Under the pieces are notes generated by a model. It was not told the origin of the DNA. It made no database searches and worked only from the letters and a program-made list of their open reading frames with translations. DNA of 64,000 nt from an uncultured Gemmatimonadales bacterium (GTDB taxonomy: Bacteria > Gemmatimonadota > Gemmatimonadetes > Gemmatimonadales > Gemmatimonadaceae), in contig OY969695.1 in the NCBI GenBank assembly GCA_963701965.1, forward strand, positions 3,520,001 to 3,584,000, read 5' to 3'. This document shows, piece by piece, positions 5,573 through 15,299 of the stretch. Numbering within the stretch: the first letter of the stretch is position 1; each line of letters starts with the position of its first letter. A program made the position numbers and the translations under genes.

Positions 5573-7915
5573 CTATATCCCCAACGTCAGGCGAAAGTTA
5601 ACCGCGAACGGACGTCCGATGGACGCGCCGCTGAAGAACGCGCCTTTCAAGATGTACTGGGAGTTGAAGAGATTCGTGAAGAACACTTCCGGGCGGATGT
5701 AGCCGCGCACGGTGAAGAAGGTGTACCCCAGGCTCAGATTCTGGATGTAGCTGGGATGGACCTTGTACTGCGAGTTGAAGCAGAAGAGACACGTCCCGTA
5801 CTGCTTGAAACCGGGTTGGAACGTGCCCTTCGACACGCTGCCGGTATCGTTCGGCACGGTGCCGTCGGGCGTCAGGCCGTTGGTCAAGCCGCTGCCGTAG
5901 ATCCCCGTCGCGCTGGCGTAGAAGCCGTGGGTGCTGTACATGATGTTGGCGACGGCCGAGACGCGCTGGTCGTGATCCAGGTCGAACGTGTAGTTGGGCG
6001 TCGAGATCGGGAAAAATCCGCCGGTGATGGGCCCGCGACCGTAGGCGTGATTGATCGCCAGGTTCACGTAGCCGGAGAACGGTCCATGGGGCTGCCACTC
6101 CAGAGCGTCCTCCACGCCGACCACCTGCACCTCGGCGATGTTCACGTCGGTCGTGATCGCCGATCCAGGCACGGTGTTGTCGTCGATCCCCGGCGTGCTG
6201 ACTTTGTGGTACACCGCCGCCTTGTTGATGAAGCCCAGCGGGAACCGGTGGATGTAGCCGCCTTCATAGAATGCGTCGCGCTCGGGGAGCGTGGGTGTCG
6301 TCGCGACGTTCTGGTCGCCGATCTGCGTGATCGACCGGAGGTCCTCGATGTTCGTGGGGATGAACTGCCGGCCGAAGTACAGGTAGATGGTGTTCGACGC
6401 ATCGGGGAAGAAATTCAACCGGACGCGCGGACTCCACTGGGTCTGGTTGCCGGCGAAGGGCGCGACGTGGCTGTCGAACCGCAAGCCCGCGCGAAGCTCG
6501 AACCACTCCACGGGCTTGAGTGACGTCTGGACGTAGCTGCCGAAGTCGTAGCCGTCGAGGGCCGAGACGGCCTGGATGGTACCCTGCCTGCCGGTGGGGT
6601 CGATGAGCTGGAAGTTCTCATTGCCGGACGTGTGGGAGTAGAGCGTGCCGATCTTGCCGTCCATGATGCCGCTGATGAGCGGGAACGACAGGTCCGTCTT
6701 GACGCCGATCGTATTGAAGCTCCGATTCTCCGACACGTTGCGCGGGGTCTGGGTCGGATCCTCGGCGTCAATGAAGCCCGGAACGTCCTGGCTGCCCGGC
6801 CGGTAGTCCAACGATCCATGGCGGTAGAACGGTCCCACGAACAACTCGGTCGGCGCGCTGCGCTCGTCGGTGCCCACCGAATCCCCGAACCAATGGCGAT
6901 AGCTCAAGTTCACGAACGCGTTCACGTCCGTCTGATGATCGTTCAGGATCGTACCGCCCGTGGAATCGAACGGGACGGCGAAGTTCGTGGTCGAGTAATT
7001 GCCGTCGAGCGACAGGAGGTCGCGGTTGCTCGCCGTGTACTGCAGCTTGCCGAACCCGAAGTAATCCTCGCCGTGGTTATGGAAGTTGATCGGCGAGTTC
7101 TGGGCGTTGCCCATCACGGGCTCGTTCCGCATGTCACTCCCCTGCGCCGTGCCGGAGACGAACGCGCCGAACTTGCCGCTGTTGCCGCTCATCGACAGCG
7201 CCTGGCCCAAGGCGCCGTATGAACCCCCGTACGTCGCTTCCTCGCCGTGGAATCCGCCGGCCGGGACGCGCGTCTGGATGTTGATCACGGCCACGTTCTT
7301 GCCGCCGTACTCCGCATCCCAGGCGCCGGTCTGGAAATCGATGCTCTGCACGACCGCGGGATCGAACAACTCATTGAGCGAGCCGGCCACGCCCGACGGC
7401 ACCGGTACGCCATCGACATAATACTGGTACTCGGCGTGCTGCCCGCGAATGTGCACTTCGCCCGTCGGCGCCCGGGCGGCGCCGGCCATCGCTTGCTGCA
7501 GAATGCCCAATGTCGTCGTGGTCGGGGCCGCGTGGGACTCGTTCTGCGTGTACGACTGGTCGCCGGATCGCGTGTCGATTTCGACGGGAGCCTTGGACGT
7601 GATCTGCACCGACTCCAGCGTCGTCGGCGCCGGCACGAGTCGGAAGTTCACGTGGACCGTGCCCGTCCCGATCGTCACGGGCCGGGACTGCGCGTGGAAC
7701 CCGATGAACCGGGCTTCGATCTGGTAGTCTCCGCCCGGTACATTGTGTATGATGAACCGGCCGAACGCATCGGTCGTCGTGTTGGCTACGACCGTGGTGC
7801 CGCGTTCGATCGCGATTTCGACGGCGGGCAATGGGCCCCCGGACGTGCTGTCGGTGACGGATCCGGCCACGTCACCATTGAGCGCGAGGGCGGCGGCTGC
7901 GATGAAAGTGAGCAT
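5573..7915 (-). CDS. TonB-dependent outer-membrane receptor
   Basis: Signal peptide, carboxypeptidase-regulatory-like N domain, plug (HIRG..YYVDGVP..DAEYG), beta-strand pattern to C-terminus. Confidence 0.9.
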   Translation of the reverse strand: MLTFIAAAALALNGDVAGSVTDSTSGGPLPAVEIAIERGTTVVANTTTDAFGRFIIHNVPGGDYQIEARFIGFHAQSRPVTIGTGTVHVNFRLVPAPTTLESVQITSKAPVEIDTRSGDQSYTQNESHAAPTTTTLGILQQAMAGAARAPTGEVHIRGQHAEYQYYVDGVPVPSGVAGSLNELFDPAVVQSIDFQTGAWDAEYGGKNVAVINIQTRVPAGGFHGEEATYGGSYGALGQALSMSGNSGKFGAFVSGTAQGSDMRNEPVMGNAQNSPINFHNHGEDYFGFGKLQYTASNRDLLSLDGNYSTTNFAVPFDSTGGTILNDHQTDVNAFVNLSYRHWFGDSVGTDERSAPTELFVGPFYRHGSLDYRPGSQDVPGFIDAEDPTQTPRNVSENRSFNTIGVKTDLSFPLISGIMDGKIGTLYSHTSGNENFQLIDPTGRQGTIQAVSALDGYDFGSYVQTSLKPVEWFELRAGLRFDSHVAPFAGNQTQWSPRVRLNFFPDASNTIYLYFGRQFIPTNIEDLRSITQIGDQNVATTPTLPERDAFYEGGYIHRFPLGFINKAAVYHKVSTPGIDDNTVPGSAITTDVNIAEVQVVGVEDALEWQPHGPFSGYVNLAINHAYGRGPITGGFFPISTPNYTFDLDHDQRVSAVANIMYSTHGFYASATGIYGSGLTNGLTPDGTVPNDTGSVSKGTFQPGFKQYGTCLFCFNSQYKVHPSYIQNLSLGYTFFTVRGYIRPEVFFTNLFNSQYILKGAFFSGASIGRPFAVNFRLTLGI

Positions 7916-7960
7916 GTTGACCAGACTATCGGCCGCCCTTCGGGTCGCCCACGAAAATTC

Positions 7961-7990
7961 AACGAATGGAGCGAATCGTCCGGTGAGTGG
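7961..7990 (-). promoter_or_regulatory. Putative LytTR direct-repeat binding site
   Basis: Minus-strand CCACTCACC (7990-7982) and CCATTCGTT (7969-7961), 21 bp apart, upstream of -10-like TAGTCT (7928-7923). Confidence 0.5.
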
Positions 7991-9551
7991 TCGGCGACGG
8001 AACGCCTATGGCGTGCTCGGCTGCTGGTCCCTGGTCACGATCGCCGCCTGCGGGGGCTCGGCCAGTGGTCCGTCCCCCAAGGGATCCTGCACACCGGCCA
8101 CCGTGTCGCTCGCGCCGCTCCACGGCGTGACGCTGGACTGCTCGACCGGCAGCGGTCTGACGCTCGACGGGAATGGCGCCACGTATCTCATCGTGCCGCA
8201 GTTTGCCACCGGCAACGTGGCGTATCAGTTCCAGAATTTCACGCTCAATCGCCGTCAGGCGCTCTTCGACCTGCACTTGAGACGCAAGGGGCAGCGGCTC
8301 GCCGCCGCGGCGGCGTCCATGGGTCCCATGGCGCCGGGTCCAGCGGCGGCCGTGACCGTCGGCAGCACGCGCACGTTCTGGGTATTCGCCGACACCAACG
8401 CCACGACGTACAAACTGGACACCGCCACGCTCCAGTTCGCGGGCGCCAACGTCTACGTGTATGTGGACAATGCGGCGCCGGCCAATGGGTTCAGCCCGAC
8501 CCAACTCCAAACGTTCGGCCAGCTCACCGATCAGGTGCTGTACCAACTCAATGTGACGACATTCGCGGCGCCGACGGACATCGACCACAACGGCCACGTG
8601 ATCATGCTGCTGTCGCCAGCCGTGAACGCGCTCACCCCGGCGAATGACTGCCGGACCGAAGGCTTCGTGGCCGGCTACTTCGACCCCAACGATCTCGCGC
8701 CCGGGAACGCGCACTCCAACCAGGGCGAAGTGTTCTATGGTATAGTGCCCGATCCCGATGGGACCGCGCACAGCTGCGCGCATCTCGTGGCCGATGTCGA
8801 CGGCATCATCCCCGGGACGTTCCTGCACGAGCTGCAACACATGATCAACTACGGCCACCACGTCCTGATCAATGGCGGGAGCGCCGAGGAAGGGTGGCTC
8901 GACGAAGGGATGAGCATCGTCGCCACGGAACTGGGCGCGCGATACTACAACGCCAAGCATCCGCCGGCCAACGGCCGGATTTTCACCGATTCGGCGGTGC
9001 CGTACATCGAGGAGCAGCTCAACGACTCCTACGACTACCTCGCGAATCCCGATACGGCATCCCTGACACTGCACACGGACGCCGACTGTTGCCTGGAGTG
9101 GCGCGGCGGTGACTGGCTCCTGATGCGGTACCTCGGGGATCAAAAGGGAGACCCGGTCTTTCACGCGCTGGAGACGTCCACCGCGACTGGCACGGCAAAC
9201 ATCGCCCAAGCGTCGGGCCTGCCCTTTTCGGTCTTCTTCGGCAACTTCGGTATCGCCGCTTATACCGACAGTATCCCGGGAGTCGCGCGGAGCGCGATCC
9301 CCGCTCCGTATCGCTTTACGTCGTACAACTTGCGTGACCTGTACGCACTCGTTCATAACATCTACCCGCTTCTTCCAGCGACCCTCACCAGCGCGGGCCT
9401 GTCGGGGAAGATCGTGCCGGGCACGAGCGCCTATTATCAGCTGGCGACGCCGGCGGGCTCGGGCTCCGTCTCGCTCACGTTCGGTGGAACGGGCGGCGGG
9501 GTGTTCCCGGCGTCGCTCCATCCGCAGGTCAACGTGTTTCGCCTCGAGTGA
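7983..9551 (+). CDS. Lipoprotein zinc metallopeptidase (M30/neutral-protease-like)
   Basis: Lipobox IAAC; HELQH followed by WLDEG; start chosen at GTG 7983 to avoid overlap with receptor gene (uncertain). Confidence 0.75.
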   Translation: MSGRRRNAYGVLGCWSLVTIAACGGSASGPSPKGSCTPATVSLAPLHGVTLDCSTGSGLTLDGNGATYLIVPQFATGNVAYQFQNFTLNRRQALFDLHLRRKGQRLAAAAASMGPMAPGPAAAVTVGSTRTFWVFADTNATTYKLDTATLQFAGANVYVYVDNAAPANGFSPTQLQTFGQLTDQVLYQLNVTTFAAPTDIDHNGHVIMLLSPAVNALTPANDCRTEGFVAGYFDPNDLAPGNAHSNQGEVFYGIVPDPDGTAHSCAHLVADVDGIIPGTFLHELQHMINYGHHVLINGGSAEEGWLDEGMSIVATELGARYYNAKHPPANGRIFTDSAVPYIEEQLNDSYDYLANPDTASLTLHTDADCCLEWRGGDWLLMRYLGDQKGDPVFHALETSTATGTANIAQASGLPFSVFFGNFGIAAYTDSIPGVARSAIPAPYRFTSYNLRDLYALVHNIYPLLPATLTSAGLSGKIVPGTSAYYQLATPAGSGSVSLTFGGTGGGVFPASLHPQVNVFRLE

Positions 9552-9554
9552 CGG

Positions 9555-10508
9555 TCACGGGAACGGCACGCCACCCATCTGCGCCACGCCCATCATCCCG
9601 GACATGGCCTTCCAGTCGGCGACCGTGGTGACGGACGAGACGTCGTCCCGATAGCGGGCGGCGGCGGCGACGACCTCGGCGCGTTTGCGCGCGCGTGGCA
9701 CGTCGTTCGACGCCAGGATGTCGGCGACGACGTCGTGAAAGGCGTGCAAGTTGTCGAAGATGATCGCCGCCTCCGGATAGCGCCCGGCGAACGCGGGCGC
9801 GACGCCGGCGGTCATCGGCATCACGCTCGGCATCCGCGAGGGGGCCTCGGCCAGCATGCCCCGGAACCGCGCGACCGCCGAGTCGACGTTTGCCCGCCGC
9901 TCGGCGGGTGTCGCGCCCCGCATCAAGGCATCATACAGGACGACCTGCAGCCAGTGATACGACCACAGCAGGCCCGTGAACTTCGGGTAGCGCTTCCGAA
10001 AAGCCAGGGAGTAGTACTGGCCATCCATCAGGGACATGCGCTTCGGGCTGCTGCTGAATGCCAGATCGTGGCGCGAACGATAGTAGCGGATGGCCGTGGC
10101 CACCGCGGTGTCCTTCGCCGCCGTTGGAATCCGGTCGTCGGCCCAGATGTCGTAGATCTGCCGGTGCAGCATGTGCGCCCACTCGAACATCGCGTGGGCC
10201 TCGGGAATGAGGCGCGCGTAGTCGGGGCCGATGGCTTCTTCGTCCAACGGGACCGCGGGCGGGTGCACCAACAGTCGGGTCGTGATAAACGTGAATCGAT
10301 CGTCCTCGATGCGGCTCACCGGACCGTCCGGGTGCGCGATCAGCTCCTCGTACACGATCGCGTGCCCATAGTCGAACGCGTTGAACAGCCGGTCGGCCTG
10401 GGCATACTGATGCCGAAACGCCCAGTTGTGCGACGCGGGGAAATACGTCTGCTCGTAGTATCCGCAGCCCGCGACCAGCAGCAACGCCGCGACGCCCCTA
10501 GTGCGCAC
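9555..10508 (-). CDS. Hypothetical lipoprotein with four His-bearing helical repeats
   Basis: Lipobox LVAGC; four internal repeats; Met-rich linkers. Confidence 0.8.
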   Translation of the reverse strand: MRTRGVAALLLVAGCGYYEQTYFPASHNWAFRHQYAQADRLFNAFDYGHAIVYEELIAHPDGPVSRIEDDRFTFITTRLLVHPPAVPLDEEAIGPDYARLIPEAHAMFEWAHMLHRQIYDIWADDRIPTAAKDTAVATAIRYYRSRHDLAFSSSPKRMSLMDGQYYSLAFRKRYPKFTGLLWSYHWLQVVLYDALMRGATPAERRANVDSAVARFRGMLAEAPSRMPSVMPMTAGVAPAFAGRYPEAAIIFDNLHAFHDVVADILASNDVPRARKRAEVVAAAARYRDDVSSVTTVADWKAMSGMMGVAQMGGVPFP

Positions 10509-11430
10509 CAGGCTTGGCCTCGGGCACGAGCGCCGGGAGCGCGAAGGTGTACGACGTGCCGAGCGTCACCAGCCACGCGGGTCGGAGCCCGCTGAACAGC
10601 CGGCCCACCCCAGCGTCGAGCACGAAGCGCGGCGAGAGTTGCTTTCGGAATCCCAGCTCCAATGTCCAATCATCCGGTCGCGGCGGTCCGCCGCTGTAGC
10701 GGGACACGACGATATCGCCCACGACGAGCCACGAGGCCAGCGGGAAGGTGCGGTCGAGAGCCAGACCAGCGGATATCACGTTGCCGCTGCTCTGGGTCGG
10801 CGACGATGCGGCCGGTGGGGCTGTTTGCTGACTCCCAATGTCGTCGGCGACGACGCCGCAGGGGATATCGGGAATAGGCGGCGGAGGTGCCGGGCAATTC
10901 ACCGTGCATCCCGGTGCCGGCGCGGGAGCGCTCGCTACGTGATACGAGCTATAGGTGACGTTGGCGTGCACACGAAACGCGCCCAGGGTCCGAGTGGCCA
11001 TCGCCCGGCCCTCGAATAGTGTCCCCGTCGTGGTGGCGCCGGCCGCCGGAAACGCGACTTCCCCCCGCACCGCGAACGCGGGGAGCCACGTGCTCTCGTT
11101 ATTGAAGTTGTACATCGCGCCCAGCCCGAACTGCGTGAGCCCGTGGCTGGGCGTGGCGCCGCGCTCCCGAAGGATGAACGGCGCCAGGAGCTCGATCTCG
11201 GCGCGGGGCAGGATGCCGTAGGAGAGCGCCGGCTCCAGCGTCACACGGGTCAGGCCGCCACTGAACAGCGCAACCGTCGCCGGCGCGAGATCCAGCTCAA
11301 TGGCTTGTCGAGGCGTCACCGCCGCCTCTTCGACGCTGGATGGCCGTCCGGGTGACAGGTCGTGGTATTCGGTCTGCGCGGCCGCGGCGCCCGCGAAGAG
11401 CCAGGCGCCGATCGGCAGCAGGATCCTCAG
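10498..11430 (-). CDS. Outer-membrane beta-barrel (MetA/phenol-degradation-like channel)
   Basis: Signal peptide LRILLPIGAWLFAGAAAAQ, RP...E.A N-terminal motif, amphipathic strands ending GTSYTF; start may be CTG 11430 or ATG 11490. Confidence 0.7.
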   Translation of the reverse strand: MRILLPIGAWLFAGAAAAQTEYHDLSPGRPSSVEEAAVTPRQAIELDLAPATVALFSGGLTRVTLEPALSYGILPRAEIELLAPFILRERGATPSHGLTQFGLGAMYNFNNESTWLPAFAVRGEVAFPAAGATTTGTLFEGRAMATRTLGAFRVHANVTYSSYHVASAPAPAPGCTVNCPAPPPPIPDIPCGVVADDIGSQQTAPPAASSPTQSSGNVISAGLALDRTFPLASWLVVGDIVVSRYSGGPPRPDDWTLELGFRKQLSPRFVLDAGVGRLFSGLRPAWLVTLGTSYTFALPALVPEAKPGAH

Positions 11431-12993
11431 GACGACGTGAGGCGGGCCAGACCCTTGCTGACGCGGATGCGGTCGATCTCGCGGCCCCATTGATCGATCT
11501 GCGTCAGCGTGAGATTCGCACCGTCAATGTCGAAGACGGTGAACGAGTGGCGATCGGAGACCATACGCGCGACGTAGGCGACGCGGCCATCGTCGTCGTG
11601 CAGCCATTGCTCCGGGGCATCGGTGAAGCCTGGATCATACAGAATGCTTTCCGCCAGCCCCGGTCGTGATGTACTGGACGCCGTTGGCGTGGGTCGTGGT
11701 CTCTCCGTCGAAATGCTCGTCGACGTGGAACGTCCCCGGGGTCCGCCGGTCCTTGCCGAAGCGGTTGGCGGCGTTGGCCGTGCTCGACGCCAGAAAGGTC
11801 AGCGGCCGCGTGCGCTGGTAATTGTGCTCGTGTCCACTGAGCACGAAGTCCACGCGATGGCGCTCCAGCACGGGGCTCAGCGCCCGCATGTGCTGCTCCG
11901 TGTAATGCTCGAGGCCAACGTTGAACGCCGGATGGTGGTAGACCACGAACTTCCATCGCGCGTCCGTCGCGCCCAGGTCGGCGTCAATGTACGCCGCCCA
12001 TCCGGCATCGGTGGGATCCACGTACGAGTTCGAATCCAGACAGAGAAAGTGCGTGTCGCCGTAGTCGAAGCTGTAATTCCCCATCCGCGGAAACCGATCG
12101 CCGGCGCACCGGGTGAAATCGTCGACACGCGCGCTGGCGCCCGCGATGGGCATGGGTTGTGGAGGCGCCACCGGCCCGTTCAACGGCAGGTACATGTTGG
12201 TGAAGTAGCCGAGGGCGTCCGCGTTGGTGTCGAAGTCGGCGACGACGTGGCCGTTGGCATCCTTCCCGTGCACATCGTGATTGGCCAGCACGGTATAGAA
12301 GGGCACCGACCGGAGCAGGGGCGCCCCGACGCCGGGGCTCGCCACCTCGGCGTTGTAGATGGGGAAGAAATAGCGCTGATACTCATCGTCGCGCCCGCTC
12401 TCATACACGTTGTCGCCGGTATTCATGACGAAGTCCGGGCGCGCGTGGTAGGCCCAGTACGCGATCGCCCGCTGCCCCATCTCGCCGTAGGAGTTGTCAC
12501 CGAAGGCGACGAATCGCACCGCCGTCCCCCGCGGCTTGCGCGTCGTGCAGTATCCCTCGGCGACGAGGCTCTCGCCCTGCTTCACGCGATAGTGGTAGGT
12601 CGTGGCGAGCCGGAGTCCGGTCAGCGTGGCCGCGTAGTTGAGCCGGCCCTCGCCCTCCTTCTTTGGATCGCCACCGGAACGCGACGCGCGCACGACAGTC
12701 GCCCGGCGGCCGTAGCGCGGCGTCAGGCCGTACTCCACGGTGAAGTCCGCCGGCCGGGAGTCGGTCTGCCAAGCGACGACGACGGATTCGTTCCCTTCGT
12801 TCAGGGGTCCGCCTGCGGGGCCGGGCTGGATATAGGGGACGGCCGTGAACAGCACGGGCGCGCGGGGCAACACGCCGGGTTTGGTCGCGTCGGCCTCCAA
12901 CGCAAACAGGCCGCGTCCAACGGGCAGGAGGCCCAGCACCGTGATGCCGCCGGCTGCCTTGAGCAGCTCGCGCCGCGTGATGTCGTTTGTCAT
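11427..12993 (-). CDS. Tat-exported purple-acid-phosphatase-like metallophosphoesterase (one apparent frameshift near 11643)
   Basis: TRRELL Tat motif; FGD, TGDNVY, LANHD, HHP, GHEHNY; natural C-terminus (HLYDPGF...HSFTVFDIDG..IDRIRV) continues in another frame to TGA at 11427. Confidence 0.88.
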
Positions 12994-14993: not shown

Positions 14994-15272
14994 CTACTTC
15001 AAATAACTCTTGATGATATCGACGAGCTGCTCGGCGGCCTGATGCTCGTGGGAGCCGGGCGCCGAGTCCGGCGGCAGCACGTGATAGCGCACGTGATCTT
15101 CGAGAATCTCGGCCATGAGCGCGTTGATGGCCCCGCGGCACGCGGCCAACGTATGGAGCGCGCGCTCGCAGTCGACCTCCTCCGCCAGCAACTCCTCGAC
15201 GGCGCCCACCTGGCCGCGAATCCGCTTGATGCGGTTGATCAGCTTCTGCTTCTCGCGGATGGTATGCGACAT
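14994..15272 (-). CDS. RcnR/CsoR/FrmR-family metal-sensing repressor (RcnR-like)
   Basis: MSHT start, LINRIKRIRGQV, conserved Cys, AACRGAINALM..EDHVRYH. Confidence 0.9.
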   Translation of the reverse strand: MSHTIREKQKLINRIKRIRGQVGAVEELLAEEVDCERALHTLAACRGAINALMAEILEDHVRYHVLPPDSAPGSHEHQAAEQLVDIIKSYLK

Positions 15273-15282
15273 ACCGAACAGT

Positions 15283-15299
15283 ATACCGTGGAAGGGTAT
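15283..15299. promoter_or_regulatory. Putative RcnR/CsoR operator overlapping -10 box
   Basis: ATACC-N7-GGTAT inverted repeat with G-rich centre, overlapping minus-strand TATACT (15285-15280). Confidence 0.65.

Follow-up and report, generated by a model that had tools for sequence, protein, structure and literature searches.

The described system closest to the locus reported here is the PcoA-PcoB (CopA-CopB) pair. According to the accessible parts of two studies, Cu passes through its barrel, and a tail rich in His and Met helps the system to function and keeps the periplasmic oxidase stable; in these parts, the two studies disagree on the direction of Cu flux (PMC9210255; PMC12509749). The family to which the locus belongs resembles this system, as far as it is described there, in pairing a putative periplasmic metal protein with an outer-membrane barrel in one operon, in its His/Met-rich disordered tails and in its copper-resistance context (PMC12509749; PMC9210255). 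However, the periplasmic partner, called the bundle here, is all-helical rather than a cupredoxin-fold multicopper oxidase, and it is the bundle that carries the His/Met tail. The barrel, unlike PcoB, best matches FapF/COG4313 and lacks PF05275. The best reading is that bundle and barrel work like PcoAB but are built from unrelated folds.

The bundle gene lies in the window, the whole 64,000-nucleotide stretch analysed here, which belongs to a 5.1-Mb genome (G000) of an uncultured Gemmatimonadales bacterium. It is read on the minus strand from a GTG start at 10508, with GAGG 9 nt ahead of it, down to 9555, and encodes a protein of 317 amino acids with a lipobox. Only one copy was found in the genome with the family HMM; a weak tblastn match at 2.37 Mb was rejected as a second copy because it is an unrelated protein. 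The features of the locus are listed below.

9555..10508, minus strand: His-bundle gene, 317 aa, single copy
10464..10508, minus strand: lipoprotein signal peptide MRTRGVAALLLVAGC with Cys15, from the sequence; the Cys is retained in the closest relatives
10341..10421, minus strand: repeat unit 1, residues 30-56, with D46xxH49
10143..10223, minus strand: repeat unit 2, residues 96-122, with H112xxH115 and D120
9924..10004, minus strand: repeat unit 3, residues 169-195, with H185xxQ188
9714..9794, minus strand: repeat unit 4, residues 239-265, with DNL-H255xxH258, D259 and D263
10498..11430, minus strand: partner gene, a predicted outer-membrane beta-barrel of the FapF/COG4313 type, from its model, Foldseek and VIA

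The preliminary description of this DNA had proposed a lipoprotein made of four units that place DxxH, HxxH, HxxQ and HxxH at the same register. Conservation of the lipobox in close relatives agrees with the first point; across the family, a regular expression found a lipobox in 37 of 355 called proteins and Tat-type signals in 8. The common register was confirmed by profile alignment, in which all six pairs of units aligned without gaps in the proposed register with scores of 15.6-52.7, compared with at most 13.9 for column-shuffled controls (20 per pair) and at most 12.9 for units against other helices (16 comparisons). The weakest pair, unit 2 with unit 3 (probability 28), was barely above the controls. 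The suggested pseudo-symmetry was upheld by hhalign, which aligned the N-terminal to the C-terminal half over 127 columns with a probability of 99.5 and an E value of 8e-23, using family profiles of 122 sequences with less than 70% identity; single-sequence BLAST self-comparison did not reveal the repeat. An independent confirmation of the register comes from a subfamily whose members also have His at positions 46 and 188 and thus four HxxH motifs and eight His, which were found in 4 of the 34 genomes examined and in 5 of 136 non-redundant sequences. The bundle is a twofold repeat built from four alignable units. The Met-rich linkers that had been described are present after units 2, 3 and 4, but the linker between units 1 and 2 (PPAVPLDEE) has no Met.

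Structure prediction and fold search had been recommended as checks and were carried out. AlphaFold2 with a 132-sequence alignment gave an all-helical model (pLDDT 96.9, pTM 0.94), each quarter of which comprises a short helix, a His helix of 22-23 residues and an outer helix. Long His-bearing helices, as proposed for the four-helix site, are present in this confident model. Rather than a bare four-helix bundle, however, the fold is best viewed as four His helices that make up a twofold-symmetric core, with four outer helices wrapped around it. Foldseek searches of the PDB and BFVD gave no match at E ≤ 0.001, and there was no type-3 copper or hemerythrin entry among the matches listed. The best VIA match among 48,161 chains had a Z score of 4.8 (rmsd 4.0, 130 residues aligned), which is below the level VIA reports as typical for unmatched models, and a second VIA comparison gave a best Z score of 4.2. 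No tyrosinase, hemerythrin or DUF305 entry was among the listed VIA matches, an absence that is not proof of a new fold, and the ferritin match 7die (Z 3.7, rmsd 3.7, 114 aligned) has a Z score at background level. Judging from the predicted model, the fold is likely to be new.

The arrangement of the His helices was approached through coevolution in 519 sequences (Meff 218). The couplings between His residues were discounted because the clades that have lost them confound these signals. Among the other coevolving pairs, I118-A247 and A104-V261 point to an antiparallel arrangement of helices 2 and 4, F42-L191 and I51-F177 to the same for helices 1 and 3, L181-A262 to antiparallel helices 3 and 4, and Y119-L191 to parallel helices 2 and 3. 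This signal is weak but suggests an up-down-down-up order of the core, with D46, H112, H185 and H255 near the twofold axis, H49 and H258 on one side and H115 and Q188 on the other, so that the bundle may hold two adjacent metal sites. An all-parallel fourfold bundle is disfavoured by the coevolution, although for several helix pairs the band statistics are marginal.

Searches of Pfam and NCBIfam assigned the bundle to no family, and the window protein matched none of the Pfam families at E ≤ 0.1. Neither the single sequence nor the 132-sequence profile retrieved a relevant PDB sequence at E ≤ 10, and the ESM Atlas search returned nothing named. The literature search, which covered few subscription papers, found no description of the family. 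At the sequence level, the bundle does not belong to the tyrosinases, hemerythrins, ferritin-like ExxH proteins, DUF305 proteins or multicopper oxidases. Like CopM/DUF305 proteins (PF03713), it is exported, helical, His/Met-containing and found in copper operons. However, CopM/DUF305 motifs are of the Met/His-His kind, whereas the bundle has HxxH on four helices, an obligatory barrel partner and no PF03713 match. Ferritin-like dimetal proteins share with it a twofold internal repeat, the xxxH spacing on helices 2 and 4 and, as the weak coevolution signal suggests, the up-down-down-up order, but the bundle has four extra outer helices and His in place of the bridging Glu: instead of ExxH carboxylates, H112xxH115 and H255xxH258 are present in all 98 members that keep six His.

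Type-3 copper proteins such as tyrosinase and haemocyanin likewise have six conserved His and a pseudo-twofold four-helix core. Their motif consists of HxxxH pairs and a distal His, whereas the pairs of the bundle are HxxH (112/115 and 255/258), there are additional Asp and Gln positions, Pfam and PDB-sequence searches gave no match to them, and none is among the fold matches listed. Hemerythrin ligands are HxxxE, HxxxH and HxxxxD with bridging carboxylates; the ligand string of the bundle is DHHHHQHH, and there is no PF01814 match. The bundle also lacks a type-1 Cu motif and any Cu-oxidase Pfam match, and with its all-helical model it has no cupredoxin domains of the PcoA/CueO kind. The earlier view that no known family can be assigned is supported by these searches.

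The bundle is a real, undescribed family. A word-index search yielded 3,188 relatives among 7,998 scored candidates, and a 50%-cluster library contained 473. The named close relatives are from Gemmatimonadota, in which a member was found in 36 of 151 and 107 of 401 genomes in two tallies; the second includes the unpublished genome G157, a protein of which is also among the 519 aligned sequences. Named genomes contain at least 595 relatives, and the best 80 of these are mostly from Cyanobacteria (Microcystis, Chlorogloeopsis, Aphanothece), Armatimonadota and Elusimicrobiota; the family is also carried on Methylobacterium plasmids. The relatives are annotated as hypothetical proteins, save for names derived from fusions and one DUF3160 label on a UniRef entry, which was rejected since Pfam gives 0 families for this entry at E ≤ 1e-6. 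This is a widespread, unnamed bacterial family.

Conservation of the His residues in homologues, another of the proposed checks, was found in the majority of the family: of 136 full-length, non-redundant members, 98 have the complete set of six His, while 29 keep at most two and 9 are intermediate. In the 98 six-His members, Q188 (92), E90 (89), W110, W182, Y184, W186, F251, D252, N253, D259 and D263 are near-fixed, and Met is conserved at positions 158 (87), 230 (97) and 232 (85). Position 46 is more variable, with D in 74, A in 11, H in 5, G in 5 and other residues in 3. When the ligand columns are excluded from tree building, loss of the His residues, which go in blocks, maps to two or more distinct clades, with 5 Fitch changes, one of which comes from a truncated sequence. 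A Met/His-rich tail is present in 49 of the 90 members that have a tail, compared with 22 of 548 control proteins. Natural fusions join the bundle to cytochrome c, cupredoxin, DUF2231, SnoaL/DUF4440, STI1-like and PQQ-propeller domains and to a MerB-like domain with a Cys motif, which we take to be NosL-like as well. The cytochrome c, cupredoxin, DUF2231 and MerB/NosL-like fusions fit electron or Cu transfer. In the Armatimonadota-type loci L090-L143, the bundle has this Cys-motif domain at its C terminus, and a stand-alone copy of the domain is encoded directly upstream in 55 of 82 loci.

The preliminary description missed the obligatory barrel partner, on which the functional reading depends in large part. 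The barrel gene lies upstream of the bundle gene, and the two overlap by 11 nt, the stop of the former with the start of the latter. Its open reading frame extends from an ATG at 11490, but the likely start, judging in part from homologues, is a CTG at 11430. The protein is modelled as a beta-barrel that carries a plug at its N terminus (pLDDT 85.7). FapF (Foldseek E 7e-9; VIA Z 22.8, rmsd 2.9, 235 aligned, 5o65) and Pput2725/COG4313 (4rl8; Z 21.6, rmsd 2.6, 224 aligned) head the VIA list, placing the barrel structurally in the COG4313/FapF group. It nevertheless has only 13% identity to FapF/Pput2725 and invariant RxHxN and GxRxQ motifs of its own; it is also tied to copper genes, a link that the literature search did not show for COG4313 barrels. 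The window barrel matches 0 Pfam families, PF05275 included, and the genome has no PF05275 match; one distant member of the barrel family passes the PF13557 cut-off.

Across Gemmatimonadota, Cyanobacteria, Armatimonadota and others, the barrel is fused or adjacent to 128 of 137 bundle genes. This count takes in the genes from the fetched loci that encode 200 aa or more, with one frameshifted copy (L060) left out. These pairs comprise 80 with the bundle first, 32 with the barrel first, 7 fusions, 1 divergent pair and 8 found by six-frame search; the 9 genes without a barrel are four at a contig edge and five His-degenerate copies. Gene order flips across lineages while the pair persists. In the fusions, the bundle follows the last barrel strand, and we infer that the bundle is periplasmic and held at the outer membrane, in this protein through a lipid anchor and elsewhere by fusion to the C terminus of the barrel. 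Frameshifted or split barrel-bundle pairs or fusions were observed in three genomes (L053, L059 and L060).

The neighbourhood of the family was scanned with Pfam and NCBIfam in selected sets of 129, 71, 73 and 20 proteins. Strict Cu markers were found within about 6 kb of the bundle in 57 of 82 loci outside Gemmatimonadota and in 12 of 34 Gemmatimonadota loci (one of which, L054, rests on a CusB-like match only), compared with 6% of 13-kb control windows of the genome G000; neighbouring loci are related, and the counts are therefore not independent. The other 22 Gemmatimonadota loci have no strict Cu marker. Around the copy in the window, no copper gene was found within about 6 kb; a block of Gemmatimonadota loci lies in housekeeping synteny with cutA, Yip1 and aldehyde dehydrogenase genes. 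The neighbours include Cu-ATPases, CusABC-type pumps, CopC/D, cupredoxins, DUF305 (in 11 of 116 loci), DUF2231, YHS and YtkA proteins, together with CsoR, MerR and heavy-metal-type two-component regulators. The combination of CPC, YN and MxxSS is the Cu(I) signature of P1B ATPases and occurs in 28 of the 41 neighbouring enzymes; with 4 of the CPH type, 32 are of the Cu type, while 3 are SPC-type and 1 is TPC-type. Two neighbouring ATPases were tested against TIGR01511, and both pass its cut-off. This gene context favours Cu over Fe as the putative metal of the bundle.

The relation to CopB was also considered. Mutual exclusion of the two was rejected, as 13 of 28 genomes with CopB also carry the bundle family, compared with about 7.5 expected; this co-occurrence at the genome level argues against a simple replacement. 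CopB is present in 4 of 6 genomes with His-lost copies and in 28 of 401 overall, a small and kin-biased sample. One His-lost paralogue (L177, G313:C81) lies between two multicopper oxidase genes and beside copB, with a barrel on the opposite strand, and its genome has an intact barrel-bundle pair elsewhere.

In 24 mostly cyanobacterial loci (L065-L088), a palindromic MerR-type box lies in a long-spacer promoter ahead of merR (10), the bundle gene (8) or Cu-ATPase genes (5), so that the cyanobacterial bundle gene shares its operator with copA; in 2 loci, CopZ-like genes lie between the box and the bundle gene. The box gave 46 strand-matches, compared with 0-5 in 20 shuffles, with a pattern derived from the same loci that were counted. 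The regulators themselves fall below the CueR and MerR cut-offs, and with their operator ahead of copA, copZ, merR and the bundle gene they possibly represent an undescribed copper regulon. In Microcystis RNA, 5' ends pile up at 5595, and stranded coverage is continuous over merR, bundle and barrel in all four runs from two studies. In one of the runs, these genes are covered about 5-25 times more deeply, with comparable coverage of the flanking metK. The regulator, bundle and barrel thus appear to be transcribed as a unit. Upstream of the pair, a CsoR/RcnR-type box was not enriched (4 of 137, compared with 41 of 1055 controls) and was rejected.

Because of the barrel partner and the frequent copper-defence clusters, the bundle likely captures copper in the envelope, and we consider a copper-handling module, whether it oxidises or merely traps the metal, to be probable. 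More tentatively, and with somewhat less than even confidence, we suggest that the pair detoxifies envelope copper by capturing Cu(I), oxidising it with O2 and handing it to the barrel. Cu(I) would be pumped out by CopA and fed to the bundle site by the Met/His tails and the conserved Met158, Met230 and Met232. It would be bound at a buried, predicted two-metal site, in which H49, H112, H115, H185, H255 and H258 together with D46 and Q188 may line two adjacent positions around the twofold axis. There the bundle would probably oxidise Cu(I) with O2, as the ferroxidase centre does Fe(II), and the copper would pass to the barrel for transit of the outer membrane; the oxidation and the direction of flux are the least certain points. 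Cu(II) held tightly by His may not be easily released. A more specific version, which we regard as doubtful, is that a dicopper centre of six to eight His in a ferritin-like up-down-down-up core with four outer helices forms a cuprous oxidase of a new fold under a COG4313 barrel, and that Gemmatimonadota, bloom-forming cyanobacteria and Armatimonadota have arrived with it at an independent second PcoAB solution.

It is possible, if somewhat less likely than oxidation with hand-over, that the bundle has no catalytic role and serves as a high-affinity trap or chaperone like CopM or CusF, a periplasmic buffer that exchanges copper with the barrel. All evidence from copper context, barrel and regulation speaks for it, as do the Met/His tails and the lack of a type-1 Cu site, and CopM is itself a periplasmic Cu(I)-binding resistance protein according to the accessible part of its description (PMC4335983). 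However, about two ions per 35 kDa would be poor for a sponge, and the deep invariant second shell (E90, W110, W182, Y184, W186, F251, D252, N253, D259 and D263), together with the variable ligand position 46, at which 17 of 98 members have A, G or S, is more like an active site. This low stoichiometry, the fixed second shell, the openable ligand position and the fusions to redox partners favour oxidation over pure trapping, as does the loss of the His residues in the copy within a copA-copB cluster.

We think it improbable that the bundle acts as a dicopper enzyme on some other substrate (catechol or phenol, superoxide, peroxide or NO) admitted by the barrel, with the copper genes reflecting a need for Cu or a role against Cu stress. 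Six His is the type-3 copper stoichiometry, COG4313 barrels are small-molecule uptake channels, and fusions to cytochrome c and PQQ propellers occur, all of which would suit such an enzyme; but the neighbours are mainly efflux and resistance genes with no recurring substrate-pathway genes, the operator is common to bundle and copA, and the invariant residues of the barrel are polar (D, E, H, N, R and Q). Still less probable is a module for broader heavy-metal handling, with Zn, Co, Ni, Ag or Fe at the site. His, Asp and Gln ligands are promiscuous, the SPC-type and TPC-type ATPases occur nearby, the window has an RcnR/FrmR-like gene at a distance of 4.5 kb, and the suggested topology is ferritin-like, whereas most of the 41 ATPases are of the Cu type and cupredoxin, CopZ, CopC/D, DUF305, YtkA and CusB neighbours dominate. 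That the barrel is a FapF-like polypeptide exporter through which the bundle or its tail reaches the cell surface and binds extracellular copper is very unlikely, although FapF is its top structural match and CopM is partly extracellular according to the accessible part of PMC4335983, since 4RL8 scores nearly as high, the position after the last strand of a presumably even-stranded barrel would be periplasmic, and the members with Tat-type signals would arrive folded.

The copper-handling reading provides a testable function for thousands of hypothetical proteins without a fold match. It also suggests that abundant soil bacteria and Microcystis have an envelope module for copper defence that is so far undescribed. 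The three-gene, apparently regulated Microcystis operon is directly testable, and copper serves as an algaecide. Should the His site prove to be a catalytic dicopper centre, nature would offer a new metal-site architecture, for which natural variants with six His, eight His or lost His are available for comparison; COG4313 barrels would also, if the reading is true, be linked to metal transport.

Other genes of the window were also noted. The barrel-bundle pair is preceded by a Tat-type metallophosphoesterase gene (11427-12993, minus strand), which is purple acid phosphatase-like and is frameshifted near 11640; the TGA that closes its C-terminal frame overlaps the likely CTG start of the barrel. 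The RcnR/FrmR-like repressor gene (14994-15290, minus strand) has a TACC...GGTA-type inverted repeat just ahead of its likely start. Convergent with the bundle gene is a gene (7743-9551, plus strand) with a HELQH (HExxH) motif and no Pfam or NCBIfam match, which likely encodes a secreted metallopeptidase, and a TonB-dependent receptor-like gene (5573-7915, minus strand) carries a CxxC in its C-terminal region.
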